From NCBI RefSeq assembly GCF_902713615.1, contig NC_052148.1:235189336-235253335 (forward strand): DNA of 64,000 nucleotides. Direction: 5' to 3'. Positions 5,452 through 55,793 of this stretch are shown here, piece by piece. Under the pieces are notes generated by a model. The model was not told the origin of the DNA and ran no database searches. It was given only the letters and a program-made list of their open reading frames with translations. Every line of letters starts with the position of its first letter. Positions within the stretch are counted from its first letter, which is position 1. The stretch comes from Scyliorhinus canicula (Eukaryota). Made by a program: the position numbers and the translations under genes.

Positions 5452-5545
5452 ATTAGAACATAGAAAAATACAACACAGAACAGGCCCTTCCCATCGAGTC
5501 TGCACCGGCTCCCGGAAAGAGCACCCCACCCAAGGTCAACACCTC
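5452..5545 (-). mobile_element. HE1/CR1 3' tail fragment
   Basis: agaacatagaaaa..ccatcgagtctgcaccggctcc..gagcacccc. Confidence 0.75.
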
Positions 5546-29513: not shown

Positions 29514-29838
29514 TCATAGAGTCAACACCCAAGGAGGCCATTTGTCCCTTTGAATCAATGCCAGTTCTCTTAGAGCAATCCAGTCAGTCCCATTTCACAC
29601 GTTACCTCAAGGGTACATCCAATTTTGTTATAAAATCTTTCAGCGCCTCTATTTCACCACCCTCAAAGGCAGCCGGTCACATGTCATTACCACTGGTTGC
29701 ATAAATAAGTTATTCCTCATATCCCACCCGCATCTCTTCCCAAAATCCTTAAATCTGTGCCCCTCAGTCCTCGTATCATCAGCTAATGGGAACAGCTTTT
29801 CAGGCCGACCTTAACAAAAACAGTCATAACTCTGCACA
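29514..29838 (-). mobile_element. CR1 3' end (left flank of satellite)
   Basis: Tail catagag..ggaggccatt, then ccttaaatctgtgcccctcagtc, colinear with CR1 at 46131-46500. Confidence 0.8.
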
Positions 29839-32800
29839 CCTCAATCAGACGCCCCTCAATCAAACCGCCCCTCAATCAAACCGCCCCTCATTCAAACTGC
29901 CCCTCAATCAAACCGCCCCTCAATCAAACCACCCCTCAATCAAACCGCCCCTCAATCAAACCGCCCCTCAATCAAACCGCTCCTCAATCAAACCGCCCCT
30001 CAATCAAACCGCTCCTCAATCAAACCGCCCCTCAATCAAACCACCCCTCAACCAAACCGCCCCTCAATCAAACCGCTCCTCAATCAAACCGCCCCTCAAT
30101 CAAACCGCCCCTCAATCAAACCGCCCCTCAATCAAACCGCTCCTCAACCAAACCAAACTACAATCAAACCGCCCCTCAATCAAACCGCCCCTCAATCAAA
30201 CCGCCCCTCAATCAAACCGCTCCTCAATCAAACCGCTCCTCAATCAAACCGCTCCTCAATCAAACCGCCCCTCAATCAAACCGCTCCTCAATCAAACCGC
30301 TCCTCAATCAAACCACACCACAATCAAACCACCCCTCAATCAAACCGCCCCTCAATCAAACCGCCCCTCAATCAAACCGCCCCTCAATCAAACCGCCCCT
30401 CAATCAAACTTCCCCATCAATTAAACCGCCCCTCAATCAAACTTCCCCATCAATCAAACCGCCCCTCAATCAAACCGCTCCTCAATCAAACTTCCCCATC
30501 AATCAAACCGCCCCTCAATCACACTGCCCCTCAATCAAACCGCTCCTCAATCAAACCGCCCCTCAATCAAACCCGCTCCTCAATCAAACCTCTCCTCAAT
30601 CAAACCAACCCTCAATCAAACCGCCCCTCAATCAAACCACCCCTCAATCAAACCGCTCCTCAATCAAACCGCCCCTCAATCAAACCAAACCTCAATCAAA
30701 CCACCCCTCAATCAAACCGCCCCTCAATCAAACAGCCCCTCACTCAAACCACCCCTCAATCAAACCACCCCTCAATCAAACCAAACCACAATCAAACCAC
30801 CCCTCAATCAAACCAAACCTCAATCAAACCAAACCTCAATCAAACTGCTCCTCAATCAAATCACACCTCAATCAAACCGCCCTTCAATCAAACCGCCCCT
30901 CAATCAAACTTCCCCTCAATCAAACCAAACCTCAATCAAACCAACTTGCAATCAAACTGCTCCTCAATAAAACCGCCCCTCAATCAAACCAAACCTCAAT
31001 CAAACCAAACCTCAATCAAACCAACTCTCAATCAAACTGCTCCTCAATCAAACCACCCCTCAATCAAACCGCCCCTCAATTAAACCATCCCTCAATCAAA
31101 CCACCCTCAATCAAACACCCCTCAATCAAACCACCCCCCAATCAAACCACCCCTCAATCAATCACCCCTAAATCAAACCACCCCTCAATCAAACCACCCC
31201 CCAATCAAACCAAACCTCAAACTAACTAATTCTCAAACAAACTTCCCCTTAATCAAACCAATCCTCATTAAACCAACCCTCAATCACACCAGCCCTCAAT
31301 CAAACCACACACTAATCAAACAAATCCGCAATAAAATATATCCTCAATTAAATCACCCCTTAAACAAACTAACCCTCAGTGAAACTGTCCCTCAATCAAA
31401 CCATCCCTCAGTGAAACCGCCCCTTAATCAAGCATGGGGCAGCACTTTGGCACAGTGGTTGGCACAGTTGCTTGATTCGCAGCTTGGGTGACTGTCTCTT
31501 TGGAGTCTGCTTGTTCTCCTTGTGTCTGCGTGTGTTTCCTCCGGGTGTTCTGGTTTCCTCCCACAGTCCAAAGATGTGCGAGGTCGGTGGATTGGTCACG
31601 CTACATTGCTCCGTAGCGTCCAAAAGGTAGGTGGGGTTACTGAGTTACGGGGATAGGGTGGAGGTGTGGGCGTAGGTAGGGTGCTCTTTTAGAGACCAGT
31701 GTAGACTTGATGGGCCAAATGGCTAACTTCTGCACTGTAAATTCTATGATTCTATGAAAATGTGGCATCCAGAATTGAGCACAATACTCCAGCAGAGAAT
31801 GAGAATTACTTCTTAGAACAGTACAGCACAGAACAGGCCCTGCCCCTCAATCAAACCATCCCTCAATCAAACCGCCCCTCAATCAAACCAACCCTCAATC
31901 AAACCGCCCCTCAATCAAACCACCCCTCAATCAAACCAAACGTCAAACAAACGGCTCCTCAATCAAACCACCCCTCAATCAAACCGCCCTCAATCAAACC
32001 GCCCCTCAATCAAACCACCCCTCAATCATTCCAACCCTCAATCAAACGGCCCCTTAATCAAACCGCCCCTCAATCAAACCACCCCTCAATCAAACCAACC
32101 CTCAATCAAACCACCCCTCAATCAAACCAACCCTCAATCAAACCGCCCCTCAATCAAACCACCCCTCAATCAAACCGCCCCTCAATCAAACCCCCTCAAT
32201 CAAACCGCCCCCCTCAATCAAACCACCCCTCAATCAAACCGCTCCTCAATCAAACCGGCTCCTCAACCAACCAAACCCCAATCAAACCGCCCCCTCAATC
32301 AAACCAAACCTCAATCAAACCAAACCTCAATCAAAACGGCTCCTCAATCAAACCAACCCTCAATCAAACCGCCCCTCAATCAAACCGCCCCTCAATCACA
32401 CCGCCCCTCAATCATTCCAAACTCCATCAAACTGCCCCTTAATGAAACCGCCCCTCAATCAAACCGCCCCTCAATCAAACCAATCCTCAATCAAACCACC
32501 CTCAATCAAACCGCCCCCTCAATCAAACCAACCCTCAATCACACAAACCCTCAATCATTCCAACCCTCAATCAAAACCCGACCCTCAATCATGTCCAACC
32601 CTCAATCAAACCAATCCTCAATCAAACCATCCCTCCATCATTAGCCAACTCTCAATCATTACAACTCTCAATCATTCCAAACCCGCAAGCAAACCGCCCT
32701 CAATCAAACCGCCCCCAATCAAACCAACCCTCAATCAAACCGCCCCTCAATCATTCCAACCCTCAATCATTCCAACCCTCAATCAAACCAACCCTCAATC

Positions 32801-34030
32801 ATACCAACCCTCAATCATACCAACCCTCAATCAAACCACCCCTCAATCATTCCAACCCTCAATCAAACGGCCCCTTAATCAAACCGCCCCTCAATCAAAC
32901 CACCCCTCAATCAAACCAACCCTCAATCAAACCACCCCTCAATCAAACCAACCCTCAATCAAACCGCCCCTCAATCAAACCACCCCTCAATCAAACCGCC
33001 CCTCAATCAAACCGCCCCTCAATCAAACCGCCCCTCAATCAAACCAACCCTCAATCAAACCGCTCCTCAATCAAACCGCTCCTCAACCAAACCAAACCAC
33101 AATCAAACCGCCCCTCAATCAAACCACCCCTCAATCAAACCAAACCTCAATCAAACCGCCCTCAATCAAACCACCCCTCAATCAAACCAAACCTCAATCA
33201 AACCGCCCCTCAATCAAACCGCCCCTCAATCATTCCAACCCTCAATCAAACGGCCCCTTAATCAAACCGCCCCTCAATCAAACCGCCCCTCAATCAAACC
33301 AACCCTCAATCAAACCACCCCTCAATCAAACCGCCCCTCAATCAACCAACCCTCAATCACACAAACCCTCAATCATTCCAACCCTCAATCAAACCGACAC
33401 TCAATCATTCCAACCCTCAATCAAACCAACCCTCAATCAAACCATCCCTCAATCATTCCAACTCTCAATCATTCCAACTCTCAATCATTCCAACCCTCAA
33501 TCAAACCGCCCCTCAATCAAACCGCCCCTCAATCATTCCAACCCTCAATCAAACGGCCCCTTAATCAAACTGCCCCTCAATCAAACCACCCCTCAATCAA
33601 ACCAACCCTCAATCAAACCGCCCCTCAATCAAACCAACCCTCACTCAAACCGCCCCTCAATCATTTCAACCCTCAATCATTCCAACCCTCAATCAAACCA
33701 ACCCTCAATCATACCAACCCTCAATTATACCAACCCTCAATCAAACCAACCCCCAATCATACCAACCCCCAATCATACCAACCCCCAATCAAACCAACCC
33801 CCAATTATACCAACCCTCAATTATACCAACCCCCAATCAAACCAACCCCAATCATATCAACCCTCAATTATACTAAACCTCAATCAAGCCTACCTTCAAT
33901 CAAACCAACTCTCAATCAAGCCAACCCTCAATCATTCCAACCGCCAATGACACCAACCCTCAATCATACCAATCTTCAATCAAACCTACCCTCAATCAAA
34001 CCAACCCTCAATAATTACGACCCTCAATCT
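29839..34030. repeat. 16-bp tandem satellite, consensus CCTCAATCAAACCGCC, about 235 units by length, interrupted at ~31433-31840
   Basis: Directly visible; 16-aa periodic pseudo-ORFs NQTAPQSNRPSIKPPL. Confidence 0.98.
31436..31757 (+). mobile_element. HE1-like V-SINE inserted in the satellite
   Basis: ggggcagcac head, V-domain, attctatgattctatg tail. Confidence 0.9.
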
Positions 34031-34330
34031 AATTTGCTCCAATGTGAACAACCGCAGCTTCTTCAACCTAACCAAGTAACTTAAAATCCCTCATTCCTGG
34101 AAACATTTTGGAAAATCACTTATTCACCATTTGAAGAACCTTCACATGTTGTGACCAAACTAGATTCAATACTGTAGTTGTAACCTAACCAGAGCTTTGT
34201 ATAGGTCCAGCATACCTTCCCAGCATTTGTACTCAATACCTCTCTTTATGAAGTCGAAAATCCCAAGTACTTTGTTAATTAATCTTTCAGTATATCTACC
34301 TTCAATAATCCCTGCATATGCACCAAAAGA
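34031..34330 (-). mobile_element. CR1 ORF2 continuation (right flank of satellite)
   Basis: FIKRGIEYKCWEGMLDLYKALVRLQLQY; colinear with 46520-46800. Confidence 0.85.
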
Positions 34331-35519: not shown

Positions 35520-36390
35520 CGTTTCAAGCATAGCAAAAGGTATGTATAATCATGCTGATGACTTTCGGTGACCAGCCAACTTTATTTTTGTTCCCATGCA
35601 TAGGCCCAGGAAGAGTCTGTTGAGGACAAAGTCCTGTGTTATAAAGCTGCTTGGATAAACCTTGACAAAATGACCGCACTTTTTTTGCAAGTACACATTC
35701 CAGAAGGAGGTAGCCGATGATATCCTGCACATCATGGTCATCGTGCCGACAGTGTGCAGTGACACTGAGACTTTGGGTGTGCAGGAAGGATCGGATGGGA
35801 GAATGCTTCCTCACTATGAGCCAATCAACGTCTTGAAGCTTGTTCAATAAATATGAGAACACAGCAATCTGCCCGGGACATCGTTTCTTGGATCCATCAT
35901 CTCCTTTCTCAAACAAAACCCTCCAATGACCACCCCTGATCAACTTGAGATTAACATGTTCTTCTGGAAACATTTCTAAGAGGGTCAGCAATTCGGTACA
36001 CTTTAACTGAATAAAGTGCTTCACAGCAATAGGGCCCAACTCATCCTGCTCGACATCCAGAGCAGATAGAACCTCATCACATGGTGACACTTGGTATTTC
36101 CCAGGGAAGTGTAAACAACGTTTGATGCAGCTGGACACAAATTCTGCCGTCAGCCAAGGATAAGATTGGATTTTTTTTACCTTTATATCTGGAGATTTGT
36201 AGATCATTTCACTGTGGAGAAGGTCCATTTTGAATTTCCAAATAAAGTGAAAGCTAGCTTGGATGGTTGCTATGGAAAAGTCTGAAGCTTGAAGTCGAGT
36301 CGCCCTGTCAAAATGTCCTGCTAGCGGGCTGAAGTACCTTGTATGTAATCCAGAGGTTCTCAGCATGATAGAGAGGGACTTCAAGGGATT
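35520..36390 (-). mobile_element. Tx1-like (L1 clade) ORF2 C-terminal region, decayed
   Basis: FHFIWKFKMD..MIYKS, FVSSCIKRC, alternative frame NTKCHHVMRFYL, LNKLQDVDWLIVRK.SPIRSFLH..AHC..LLLECVLAKKV (zf-RVT-like), alternative frame PSSFITQDFVL. Confidence 0.75.
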
Positions 36391-36992
36391 AAAGGCTTAC
36401 ATGGAAGGCAGGAGTTTGCTAAACGGTAGAAGTGATATTAATATGAGGCAATAGGTTGATAATTTGGGGGAAACAGTAGGGTAGCGGTACTGTTACTCTC
36501 TCTTACACAGCAATGTGGCTGGCTTTTAAATAACCCCTGAAATGGCTGAGCCAGTCATTTGCGAGTTCAACTAGTTAGGTTAAGACTCAAGGTAGGATAT
36601 TTAGCTGCTTCTATTTTTTTTTAGTCGTTCATGTGATGTGGGCATCACTTGCAAGGCCCATATTTATTGCCCATCCTTAAATGCCCTTGGGAAGGTGCTG
36701 GTGGGACTGGTTGGAAAAATAACTGCATGCTAATGACACCTGCTGTTAATAATGCGCAAGTTCAGAGGATTAGGAGATGGATTGTGAGTCAGGTTCCAGA
36801 ATTTGCTGATCAAATGACACTGCTCCTCTGCTTGCTTCACACAAATGGTATCTCAACTTTGTCTCTAATTTAAGTCAACTACTTGTTGAATTTCAATATT
36901 GAACCATTAAACTCAATTACCGGCATCATTTATTAACAGCATAAGTATCTTTGTAAAGTATGATACTTGTTAATTTAGTGTCAATCACCATG

Positions 36993-44676: not shown

Positions 44677-46130
44677 AACATTTGAGACATCATGAAATGT
44701 GTGGTATAAATGTAAGTATTGTCTTACTTTCTGTTATGTTATATATCATTCCTGCTGGGAAAGCATCAAGTGATGTGTAGTGACATCAGCAGATGTTTTG
44801 CACAGGCTTTAGGCAGTTCTCCATCTTAGGTTGCATGAGCAATACCCCTCAATAAACCTCTCATGGTGTTTTGAAAGAAAGTAGAGTGTGGGCTCCTCCG
44901 TACATTTTCTCTTTGCTGTAACAAAGAAATATAACAGAAGACAACACTGGCAATGAGGATTGAGGCAGGAAAAATCGCTGGAAGAAGAAATGCACCGCCT
45001 AAACAGTGGAGACAGTGTCGGGAGCAAAGAAGGATTCTCAGGAGCAGACTCACACACATACACATACACACGTCAGGGGAAGCATTGCTGCCCATAGTGA
45101 AGGTTTAAAAAAAGTTTCGGCTGTAACTGTGAAAAAGAAGACTGACATTCGGGGGGACCTTGTTTGGCTGTTGAAGTGAGTAGGGTCTGGCCTGCAGGGA
45201 CTGTGCACATTGCAAAGTTAAATGGGCTGCAGGAAACGGGGATTTCAAAGTCTGCCGACTCTGCATGGTCCACTACTTAGGGGAAAAAGTCAAACTACAG
45301 TCAGGCAAAACGGAAAGGGAATTTCTCGTACTTGTAATAAATGGGATTGTTTGTGCCATACATTCCATAAAAATCGGAAGAGGGGAAGTTGGTTTAAGTA
45401 GACCTTAGGAGCGGGGATCTGAAATGGCAGATAAAAGGGACATCATGCATGCATTTGATGAAGACTGAGAGACTTGGAACTCACATAAAGAAAGATTCCA
45501 ATTATATCTCACTGCAAATCAGACATCGGCAATGCTAAACCTCACAAAACTTCTCAGCTCCATAGGACATAAAGCTTATATGCTGCAACAGATTTGCATC
45601 ACCCAGCAAAACCAGGAGATATGCTCTACATTGAATTCATGAAAATCTTTGAGGGGCATTTCTCTCCGAGACTGTTACTGATTGCAGAAAGGTTTCAGTT
45701 CCACCGCTGTAGTCAGGAAGAAGGCATTTTACAGATCAGAACAACTTTAAGAAGGTTAGCAAAATATTGCAAATTTTTTGCAACACTTGATGATACTCTT
45801 CATGGTAGGCTAGTTTGTGGACTGCACAACGAAGCTATTCAGAGGAAGCTACTTAGCGTATGTGATTTGACTCTGAAAGCTGCTGTGGAAGTTGCCACAT
45901 CTGTAAAGGTAGCAACAAGAGAAGCTTCACAGATAGGGCCAGGAGTGAAGACCCACATAATGGATACCACAATGAACAAGGCTGCAAGGGTGCAAACATG
46001 TCACCGATGTGCACAGGTTGGACACTCAGCGGGGGAGTGCTTGAGTAAAATAAATACGTGTAAGAACTGTGGCAAAAGGACCATATTGCCAAGGCATGTT
46101 GGGCTGAGAAAATGTATCCTACACCATGAA

Positions 46131-47138
46131 CAAAGAATAAAGAACAAAGAAAAGTACAGCACATGAACAGGTCCTTCAGCCCTCCAAGCCTGCGCCGACC
46201 ATGCTGCCCGTCTAAACTAAACTCTTCCACACTTCCAGGGTCCGTTTCCCTCTATTCCCATCCTATTCATCTATTTGTCAAGATGCCCCTTAAACGTCAC
46301 TATCGTCCCTGCTTCCACCACCTCTTCCGGCAGTGAGTTCCAGGCACCCACTACACTCTGTGTAAAAAACTTGCCTCGCACATCTCCTCTAAACCTTGCC
46401 CCTCGCACCTTAAACCTATGCCCCCTAGTAATTGACCCCTCTACCCTGGGAAAAAGTCTCTGACTATCCACCCTGTCTATGTCCCTCATAATTTTGTAGA
46501 CCTCTATCAGGTCACCCCTCAACCTTCTTCGTTCCAGTGAGAACAAACCAAGTTTATTCAACCTCTCCTCATAGCTAATGCCCTCCATACCAGGCAACAT
46601 CCTGGTCAATCTCTTCTGCACCCTCTCTATAGCCTCCACATCTGGCAGTGTGGTGACCAGAATTGAACACTATACTCCAAGTGTGGCCTAACTAAGGTTC
46701 TATACAGCTGCAACATTACTTGCCAATATTTATATTCAATTCCCTGGCCAATGAAGGCAAGCATGCTGTATGCCTTCTTGACTACCTTCTCCACCTGTGT
46801 TGCCCTTTTCAGTGGCCTGTGGACCTGTACACCAAGATATCTCTGACTGTCAATACTCTTGAGGGTTCTACCATTCACTGTATATTCCCTACCTGTATTA
46901 GACCTTCCAAAATGCATCACCTCACATTTGTCCGAATTAAACTCCATCTGCCATCTCACCGCCCAAGTCTCCAAATGATCTAAATCCTGCTGTATCCTCT
47001 GACAGTCCTCATCGCTATCCGTAATTCCACCAATCTTTGTGTCGTCCGCAAACTTACTAATCAGACCAGTTACATTTTCCTCCAAATCATTTATATATGC
47101 TACGAATAACAAAGGTCCCAGCACTGATCCCTGCAGAA
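46131..47138 (-). mobile_element. CR1/HER1-like LINE 3' ~1 kb, well preserved, nested at the end of Gypsy gag
   Basis: QGSVLGPLLF, KFADDTK, LVRPHLEY, RRRLRGDLIEVYK; possible TSD CATGAA. Confidence 0.95.
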
Positions 47139-47473
47139 CATGAAGAGGCAAGAATGTGCAAGAAAAAAAAGTACAGCTAAACATACTACTTGTGTCTCTC
47201 AATTAGTGGACGAAGCTCAAGATCACTAAAAGTCAATGTAACCGAGTTACTGCAGGAGTTGAAGCTCGGTGTCTTGTCAAGATGGGGTGATATCCAAACT
47301 CGAAGGTCATGAAATTAAAATGGAAGTGGATACAGACACAGCGTTATCGTTAATACCTGAGACAATTTATCATCAAAGGCTGAAGAGTCTACCTTTAAAG
47401 CCATCAATTATGATCCTAAGGATGTACATTGAAGAGGTTGTGCCATTAAAGAGATGCATTGTGGTAAAAGTAC

Positions 47474-47823
47474 CATAGAGTCATAGAAAGGTTACAGCAC
47501 AGAAGGAGGCCATTCAACCCATCTTATCCATGCCAACCCAAGGACACCCAGGTGCCCTTTCTAATCTCACCTTCCTGCACCCGACCCATAGCCATGTAGC
47601 TTACAGCACTTCAGTTACTTTTTAAAAGAGATTAGGGTCTCTGCTCCTCCACCAACTTGGGCAGCAAATTCCAGACTCCCACTACCCTCTGCGTAAAAAA
47701 GCCCTTCCACATGTCCCCTCTACACCTACTGCTACTTATCTTGAATCCATGTCCCCTGGTTCTAGAATTCTCCACCGAGGGTAACTATTTTATCCTGTCC
47801 ACTCTAACACATCCCCTCATAAT
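47474..47823 (-). mobile_element. CR1 3' fragment nested in Gypsy protease region
   Basis: catagagtcatagaaagg tail; taccctctgcgtaaaaaa (FFTQRVV on minus). Confidence 0.85.
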
Positions 47824-55605: not shown

Positions 55606-55793
55606 GGGGCTAGTTTAGCTCACTGGGCTAAATCGCTGGCTTTTAAAGCAGACCAAGCAGGCCAGCAGCACGGTTCGATTCCTGTACCAGCCTCCCCGGA
55701 CAGGCGCCGGAATGTGGCGACTAGGGGCTTTTCACAGTAACTTCATTGAAGCCTACTCGTGACAATAAGCGATTTTCATTTTTTCATTTTTCA
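55606..55793 (+). mobile_element. Short tRNA-derived SINE (family B)
   Basis: A-box tagctcactgg, B-box ggttcgattcc, tail gaatgtggcgactaggggcttttcacagtaac, tttca repeats. Confidence 0.9.

Follow-up and report, generated by a model that had tools for sequence, protein, structure and literature searches.

The 64,000-nucleotide stretch of Scyliorhinus canicula DNA analysed here (the window) contains a long tandem array of a 16-bp unit inside a copy of a CR1-type long interspersed nuclear element (LINE), and the question was how the array came to lie there. An earlier note on this DNA (the original prediction) had described it as a satellite of about 4 kb, seeded in situ by slippage or unequal exchange between two CCTC motifs in the segment coding for RLRGDLIEV. 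The analysis indicated that the array is very probably a single-locus minisatellite of 235 units which replaces a single unit at the RLRGDLIEV site of an old, truncated CR1 copy; it likely started with a slip or unequal exchange between short direct repeats, grew later and has no function. The features used below are as follows.

29514..29838, minus strand: 3' part of the host CR1-type LINE, comprising the end of open reading frame 2 (ORF2) after LIEV and the 3' tail (translation, alignments; outer boundary approximate).
29839..29853, plus strand: first unit of the minisatellite, 15 bases (sequence, comparison with relatives).
29854..31432, plus strand: left minisatellite block, 99 units including the first unit (segmentation, identity profile).
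31433..31757, plus strand: short interspersed nuclear element (SINE) with a tail of short TTCTATGA tandem (copies in window and genome).
31758..31841, minus strand: about 85 bases of LINE-like scraps, a CR1 ORF2-like piece and a CR1 3'-tail-like piece (by-eye likeness, BLAST).
31842..34021, plus strand: right minisatellite block, 136 units, with higher-order block duplications and a degenerate right end (0.76) (segmentation).
34022..34028, plus strand: terminal incomplete unit, the second copy of the direct repeat, running on into CR1 (relatives' alignments).
34029..34330, minus strand: 5' part of the host CR1, ORF2 as far as ...LFTLEQIRLR, 5'-truncated near 34330 (translation, relatives).
46133..47125, minus strand: a better preserved CR1-type copy with the end of a reverse transcriptase (RT) domain (Pfam RVT_1, E 2.2e-09).

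Tandem Repeats Finder reported a period of 16 at 29835-34012, with 260.7 copies and 78% matches; this copy count includes a non-array insert, and units were counted instead by segmentation against the window's modal unit. Segmentation gave 235 units of 16 bp at 29839-34028, with 99 to the left and 136 to the right of an insert of about 410 bp (about 31433-31841) that consists of a SINE and about 85 bases of LINE-like scraps. The original prediction made no mention of the insert. There were 94 distinct unit variants, the modal unit being CCTCAATCAAACCGCC (n=44), followed by units ending in CACC (n=24), CAAC (n=19) and CGCT (n=15). Variation lay mostly at positions 10-11 and 14-16, and position 14, within a CpG of the modal unit, was A in 111 and G in 87 of the 209 full-length units. 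In the left block, identity to the modal unit fell from 0.97 at the left end to 0.77 next to the insert; in the right block it was 0.83-0.93 over most of the length and 0.76-0.79 at the right end. Variant blocks recurred within the array, the longest exact internal repeat being 190 bases (32003 and 32824), and several unit variants were common to both sides of the insert.

The array opens and closes on the same short word, and its last unit is incomplete. The direct repeat bounding it is CCTCAAT, 7-8 bases in the window and 6 in the allele of S2, a sample from another study; it is thus longer than the CCTC first proposed, a 4-bp form below the 5-10 bp of the Haber-Louis model. Direct repeats of 5-10 bp bounding the unit and an incomplete terminal unit are what that model describes, and the array has the features of a minisatellite derived from a transposable element (TE): a tandem unit of 10-60 bp that is homologous to a TE segment and is located at that segment's own position. 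The first unit has G at position 10, nearer to the usual CR1 site than the modal unit, and is likely the edge of the original seed.

Translation of the right flank on the minus strand gave ...RLFTLEQIRLR, and that of the left flank gave ...LIEVCRVMT...EKLFPLADDTRTEGHRFK, with shifts of frame; these are the two halves of the stretch that reads GLFSLERRRLRGDLIEVYKIM in the copy at 46 kb. The host fragment is about 640 bases long and without RT and APE parts; the name CR1 follows the original prediction and the motifs at the C-terminal end of ORF2. Its ORF2 C-terminal homology is continuous with RT-bearing copies, the flanks aligning to the 46-kb copy with 63% identity over 338 columns. The host family is high-copy, dispersed and 5'-truncated, with 22,908 and 57,657 exact matches on both strands to two motifs (the LIEV site and a control site, see below).

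Relatives were fetched with each flank separately, giving more than 600 candidates per flank; the 40 dispersed copies scored for the left (3') flank showed 71-83% identity, and the 39 scored for the right (5') flank 70-76%. The 59 relatives compared were 58 loci matched by either flank (some of them near-duplicates) and the 46-kb copy. When the array was reduced to its first unit, 41 of the 59 gave one alignment across the junction, with at least 60 bases on each side and 63-75% identity, and most of those that did not were truncated or broken near the site. A check of this kind had been proposed in the original prediction, with a CR1 consensus in place of the relatives, and the outcome bore out the claim that the array is flanked by colinear halves of one minus-strand CR1. 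Both flanks scored in 38 of the 59, and the distance between them was 23 in 13 relatives and 21-25 in 26; 23 is the distance expected from one 16-bp unit plus the 7-base end repeat. At the junctions, no sequence was lost or doubled beyond one unit. In the nearer relatives (L015-L022 and L066), the site agrees with the modal unit in 14 of its 16 bases. The 46-kb copy has an unexpanded site at 46501 and the control site at 46590, and at 46501-46522 it reads as had been claimed, with a CCTC direct repeat spaced 16 bp. This copy matches the modal unit at only 11 of 16 bases (63% overall) and belongs to another subfamily than the host.

The exact modal dimer matched 13 times in the 4.22-Gb genome, and all 13 matches were inside the window; dimers were searched for with exact and degenerate patterns, in an assembly that is possibly incomplete. 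Satellite families have their unit in long arrays at several loci; the 16-bp dimers found elsewhere were two-unit duplications, and the term satellite gives way to single-locus minisatellite. Three more loci (L100, L101 and L102) were found with the degenerate 16-bp patterns, and all three are CR1 copies in which this position holds one unit more; a further dimer pattern aimed at other CR1 subfamilies found no locus.

The site was then considered at other lengths. Unexpanded sites numbered 9,668 with a 6-bp direct repeat (A at position 5) and 13,240 with a 4-bp repeat (T); a stricter pattern gave 15,907. A search with variable period (10-25) gave 140 matches, 139 of them listed, at 26 loci, all of which were inspected; its patterns require G at position 10, and the window's own subtype was thus covered only at period 16. 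Among the matches listed, 14 of the 26 loci were at the CR1 site and 12 had no CR1 flank, the latter not being counted as CR1-born. Eight of the 14 had both flanks above the shuffled maximum, L102 had a weak but correctly placed left flank, and in five CR1 was confined to the 3' side, which resembles a truncation end. The periods were 12, 13, 14, 16, 16, 16, 16, 18, 21, 21, 22, 22, 22 and 24, and in every 10,000 copies there were about 6 duplications when all lengths are counted and 1-2 of 16 bp. The exact 16-bp duplications were in L100, L101, L102 and L133, all four in copies with the 6-bp repeat (4/9,668 vs 0/13,240). With these patterns, the genome search for 16-bp arrays proposed in the original prediction returned four two-unit duplications at the same CR1 position and no other long array of this unit.

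Birth of the array in situ is supported by the contiguous flanks, the likeness of the unit to the single-copy site of the relatives, the absence of the modal dimer elsewhere and the four independent 16-bp duplications. This part of the original prediction, birth from the RLRGDLIEV-coding segment, held; the 4-bp CCTC as the seed did not, given its zero duplications in 13,240 sites against four in 9,668 for the 6-bp form. A slip, mispairing or unequal exchange between direct repeats of 6-8 bases, 16 bases apart, likely produced two units, and the founding unit would have gained about two substitutions before spreading. Two units offer longer homology, through which the array would then have grown by further unequal exchange and by gene conversion; the block duplications and the polarity would come from this growth. 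The SINE (and the LINE scraps) would have landed later within the array; after this insertion, decay may have affected the units next to the insert and those of the right end, while the left end and the right blocks kept turning over, and CpG decay would have given the commonest variant, with A at position 14. The SINE identity of 85-90%, compared with 63-75% for the host, loosely suggests that the array is old. Chance is sufficient for the growth of this copy to 235 units while most stayed at two.

The first step was weighed on the duplications at the LIEV site. Sixteen bp was the commonest length (4/14; breakpoints spread evenly would give about 9%, binomial p 0.03), and the 6-bp form makes up 42% of seeds, which gives p 0.03 for all four 16-bp events lying in it, or 0.075 for the three events at strict-pattern loci with CR1 on both sides. 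The 16-bp mode and the restriction to the 6-bp form lend weak support to a repeat-guided first step. Several points weigh against the reading proposed here: the p values come from three to four events and from tests picked after the data had been seen, and their null is crude, as short duplications outnumber long ones; in 10 of 14 cases the duplication at the site has another length (12-24 bp); the founding sequence is taken only from paralogues 63-75% alike, no unexpanded allele or orthologue of the locus having been seen; and the length of the array rests on the assembly, unchecked by long reads, since no public-run contig spans it.

The strongest rival is a small tandem duplication made in place, by end-joining repair or slippage, without the help of direct repeats and 16 bases long by chance. 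The spread of lengths just given favours it, as do duplications of 16-21 bp at the control site and the assignment of only 6% of 7,276 human TE-derived repeats to two known models of initiation, as given in PMC3389668. The array starts and stops precisely on a direct repeat, however, and 16 bp is the modal length and is limited to the 6-bp-repeat form; we regard this rival as improbable, without being negligible. For the repeat-guided origin, a narrower version would be that the frequency with which minisatellites arise depends on codon choice in the conserved ORF2 motif, the LIEV spelling with a 6-base word recurring 16 bases on being a register-specific seed. This version draws on the 6-base form of all four exact 16-bp duplications and of the 235-unit array, and is possible but rather doubtful. 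If it is true, a genome of this kind, with near-identical CR1 copies in the tens of thousands, would be a natural experiment that measures the influence of direct-repeat length on the first step towards a minisatellite.

Whether the LIEV site is special was examined with one control word, which codes for TRMLPG in the same ORF, 89 bp away, and was picked only for its conservation. The control search (periods 10-22) gave 135 matches, of which 100 were listed, ending at C7:8.9 Mb, in 14 loci; among those listed, 9 of the 14 loci belonged to the CR1 site, and they count as 8 events if L164 and L165 represent a single one. On the same contigs and among the matches listed, there were 6 LIEV-site loci per 22,908 and 8-9 control loci per 57,657, a rate ratio of 1.7-1.9 (one-sided p 0.18-0.23) with one control and denominators that are only roughly comparable. 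At the TRMLPG-coding site, L193:1990-4612 (G000:C7, about 8.910-8.913 Mb) is an array of 19 bp x 138 over 2.6 kb, with 93% matches; CR1 lies in register on its left, and the sequence on its right is CR1-derived, apparently with a deletion. One 1-kb CR1 copy contained 29 exact direct repeats of at least 5 bases, 10-30 bases apart, 13 of them of at least 6 bases, and potential seeds are therefore everywhere. A special hotspot at the LIEV site was not supported by this one control: its rate could not be distinguished from that of the LIEV site, and it gave its own 138-copy array. Tandem repeats arise from CR1 copies at many positions, among which the LIEV site was not shown to stand out. Nor was the idea that the conserved motif is a special latent seed supported, with most duplications at the site being of other lengths than 16 bp; only in a weak sense, one that holds for many positions of the element, can every CR1 copy be called a latent seed. 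The array in L193 is a parallel of the window array and looks younger.

Among the 14 CR1-site loci, the sole real array was L150 (G000:C6, about 88.703 Mb), with 24 bp x 23. Its unit comes from the VYK/LIEV stretch, and CR1 sequence adjoins the array solely on the 3' side, an arrangement like that at the 5' truncation end of an inserted element. Short duplications at L133, L152, L153, L154 and L178 are placed like L150. The placement of these six loci hints that formation of the 5' junction makes tandem duplications.

A second rival is a pre-existing satellite that was inserted into CR1 at a look-alike word, as a mobile satellite, as extrachromosomal circular DNA or by conversion. Tandems of a similar 10-base word do occur at the 12 of 26 loci without a CR1 flank, some as kilobase arrays, with C-rich units of 15-26 bp. 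None of the 12 has the unit or the period of the window array, and all 13 modal dimers are in the window; the degenerate 16-bp dimers outside it are all at CR1 sites, and at the junction nothing is lost or doubled beyond one unit. This origin is largely refuted and very improbable. Kilobase minisatellites without CR1 flanks, with units of 17-26 bp, were seen at L143-L145 (G000:C3, about 2.780-2.788 Mb), L146, L148, L159, L162 and L194, the biggest being 26 bp x 308. L147, L151 and L157 lie on different contigs; their C-rich units of 15 bp are related, there is no CR1 flank at the array, and the three are likely a multi-locus minisatellite family.

Both junctions of the array were found in S2. 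One contig covers the left junction and agrees with the window in all of 192 bases, of which 40 are within the array. Another covers the right junction with 6 differences in 346 bases; one of these differences reduces the end repeat to 6 bases, and S2 has C at 34028. Sample S1 was not counted as independent, as it may be the source sample. Run X8, which carries another organism label, gave a left-junction contig with 0 differences, but only 30 bases of it are inside the array, too thin for dating. The depth of array words varied widely among runs, twofold within one sample, and is a sum over contigs and not a copy number. An assembly artefact, by stutter or mis-join at a low-complexity site, would fit the lack of a contig that spans the array and is the least probable origin of all in the face of 94 distinct variants, a longest exact internal repeat of 190 bases, an embedded SINE and both junctions in S2.

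Two further ideas about the array found no support. A coding role was suggested by a 480-codon stop-free frame through the left block; the frame exists because the unit has no stops in that phase, and there was no evidence of its use. Among the sequencing runs returned, from a query for DNA, no RNA run contained the flank. For a drive by G-quadruplexes, the G4Hunter cut-off is 1.2, and the G4Hunter-style mean, a crude score, was 1.0-1.1 in the window array and 0.55-0.73 in two other CR1-born arrays.

Long arrays inside dispersed repeats are known from the mouse, where Ms6-hm and the B1-derived (GGCAGA)n minisatellites have units of 4-6 bp and measured instability. Like the present array, they are long, simple and grown inside a copy of a dispersed repeat; Ms6-hm, in a MaLR long terminal repeat (LTR), and the B1-derived minisatellites are listed in PMC6947457. 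The model of Haber and Louis (1998), in which short direct repeats bound a unit that is duplicated and then expanded, and the Alu-derived minisatellites of Jurka and Gentles (2006), both as described in PMC6947457 and PMC3389668, are the closest precedents: the unit is cut from a retroelement, lies between direct repeats of 5-10 bp, and is duplicated and expanded in place. Those cases concern a SINE in primates, whereas the array here comes from a CR1-type LINE, within its ORF2 coding region, in a cartilaginous fish and is longer (235 units). The mechanism is the published Haber-Louis model, and the locus is a further case of it and no new mechanism.

According to Ahmed and Liang 2012 (PMC3389668), 300 of 7,276 human TE-derived tandem repeats are flanked by direct repeats of 5-20 bp, mostly 7 bp; most of the repeats have two units, and there are weak hotspots inside some TE consensuses. 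The 14 + 9 CR1 duplications found here resemble these human repeats, as described there, in that few are expanded. The term CR1 is absent from the main text of PMC3389668. Tandem DNA with CR1 sequence is described in chicken, as the HinfI (SCR1) repeat and as CR1-related centromeric repeats, including partial ORF2 (PMC6947457, PMC9659126). In those descriptions a long CR1 fragment lies within the larger monomer of a satellite family, whereas here a 16-bp slice was amplified at one locus and both parental flanks were kept. A literature search, in which subscription journals were mostly missing and supplements were unopened, found no description of a CR1 LRGDLI seed; the LRGDLI motif led to one unrelated fly paper.

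The locus itself is most likely without function, and its value lies in recording cleanly how a minisatellite was born, both parental flanks being preserved. The same genome holds an early stage, the two-unit duplications at the LIEV site, and late parallels, the 23-copy array there and the 138-copy array at the neighbouring site. With TE-derived repeats it is initiation that is poorly understood, the share explained being 6% in the account of PMC3389668. Initiation could be measured against repeat length in a LINE that is present in tens of thousands of copies, which would be a modest and testable gain.

As for the insert, the SINE had at least 8 further copies in the window (69-80%), and its 3' 160 bases showed 85-90% identity to the best 40 of 4,731 genome candidates. 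It is presumably a tRNA-derived SINE of sharks. No target-site duplication was seen by eye. The LINE-like scraps resembled 46650-46690 and 46150-46180 by eye, with a short BLAST match at 5461-5492. No donor locus with both the SINE end and the LINE scraps was present among the best 40 of the 4,731 candidates, and capture of the insert as one copy from another locus found no support there.

Some relatives of the host formed clusters of near-identical old CR1 fragments with shared surroundings, L015-L022 and L033 on G000:C17 (113-124 Mb) and L036-L038 on G000:C2 (162.63-162.65 Mb). These clusters are likely segmental or tandem duplications; in the C17 cluster, the CR1 fragment is paired with an inverted CR1 piece.

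Elsewhere in the window, three long frames had no Pfam match. The 46-kb copy lies inside an apparent LTR-retrotransposon gag/protease region at 45500-46130 and 47140-47480, with a zinc-knuckle-like motif by eye and no Pfam match. At 35527-36396, the minus strand has a 290-codon stop-free frame with no Pfam match, and the plus strand resembles a decayed reverse transcriptase by eye. ARAGORN predicted a tRNA-Phe(aaa) at 55607-55696, which is likely a SINE head or a pseudogene.

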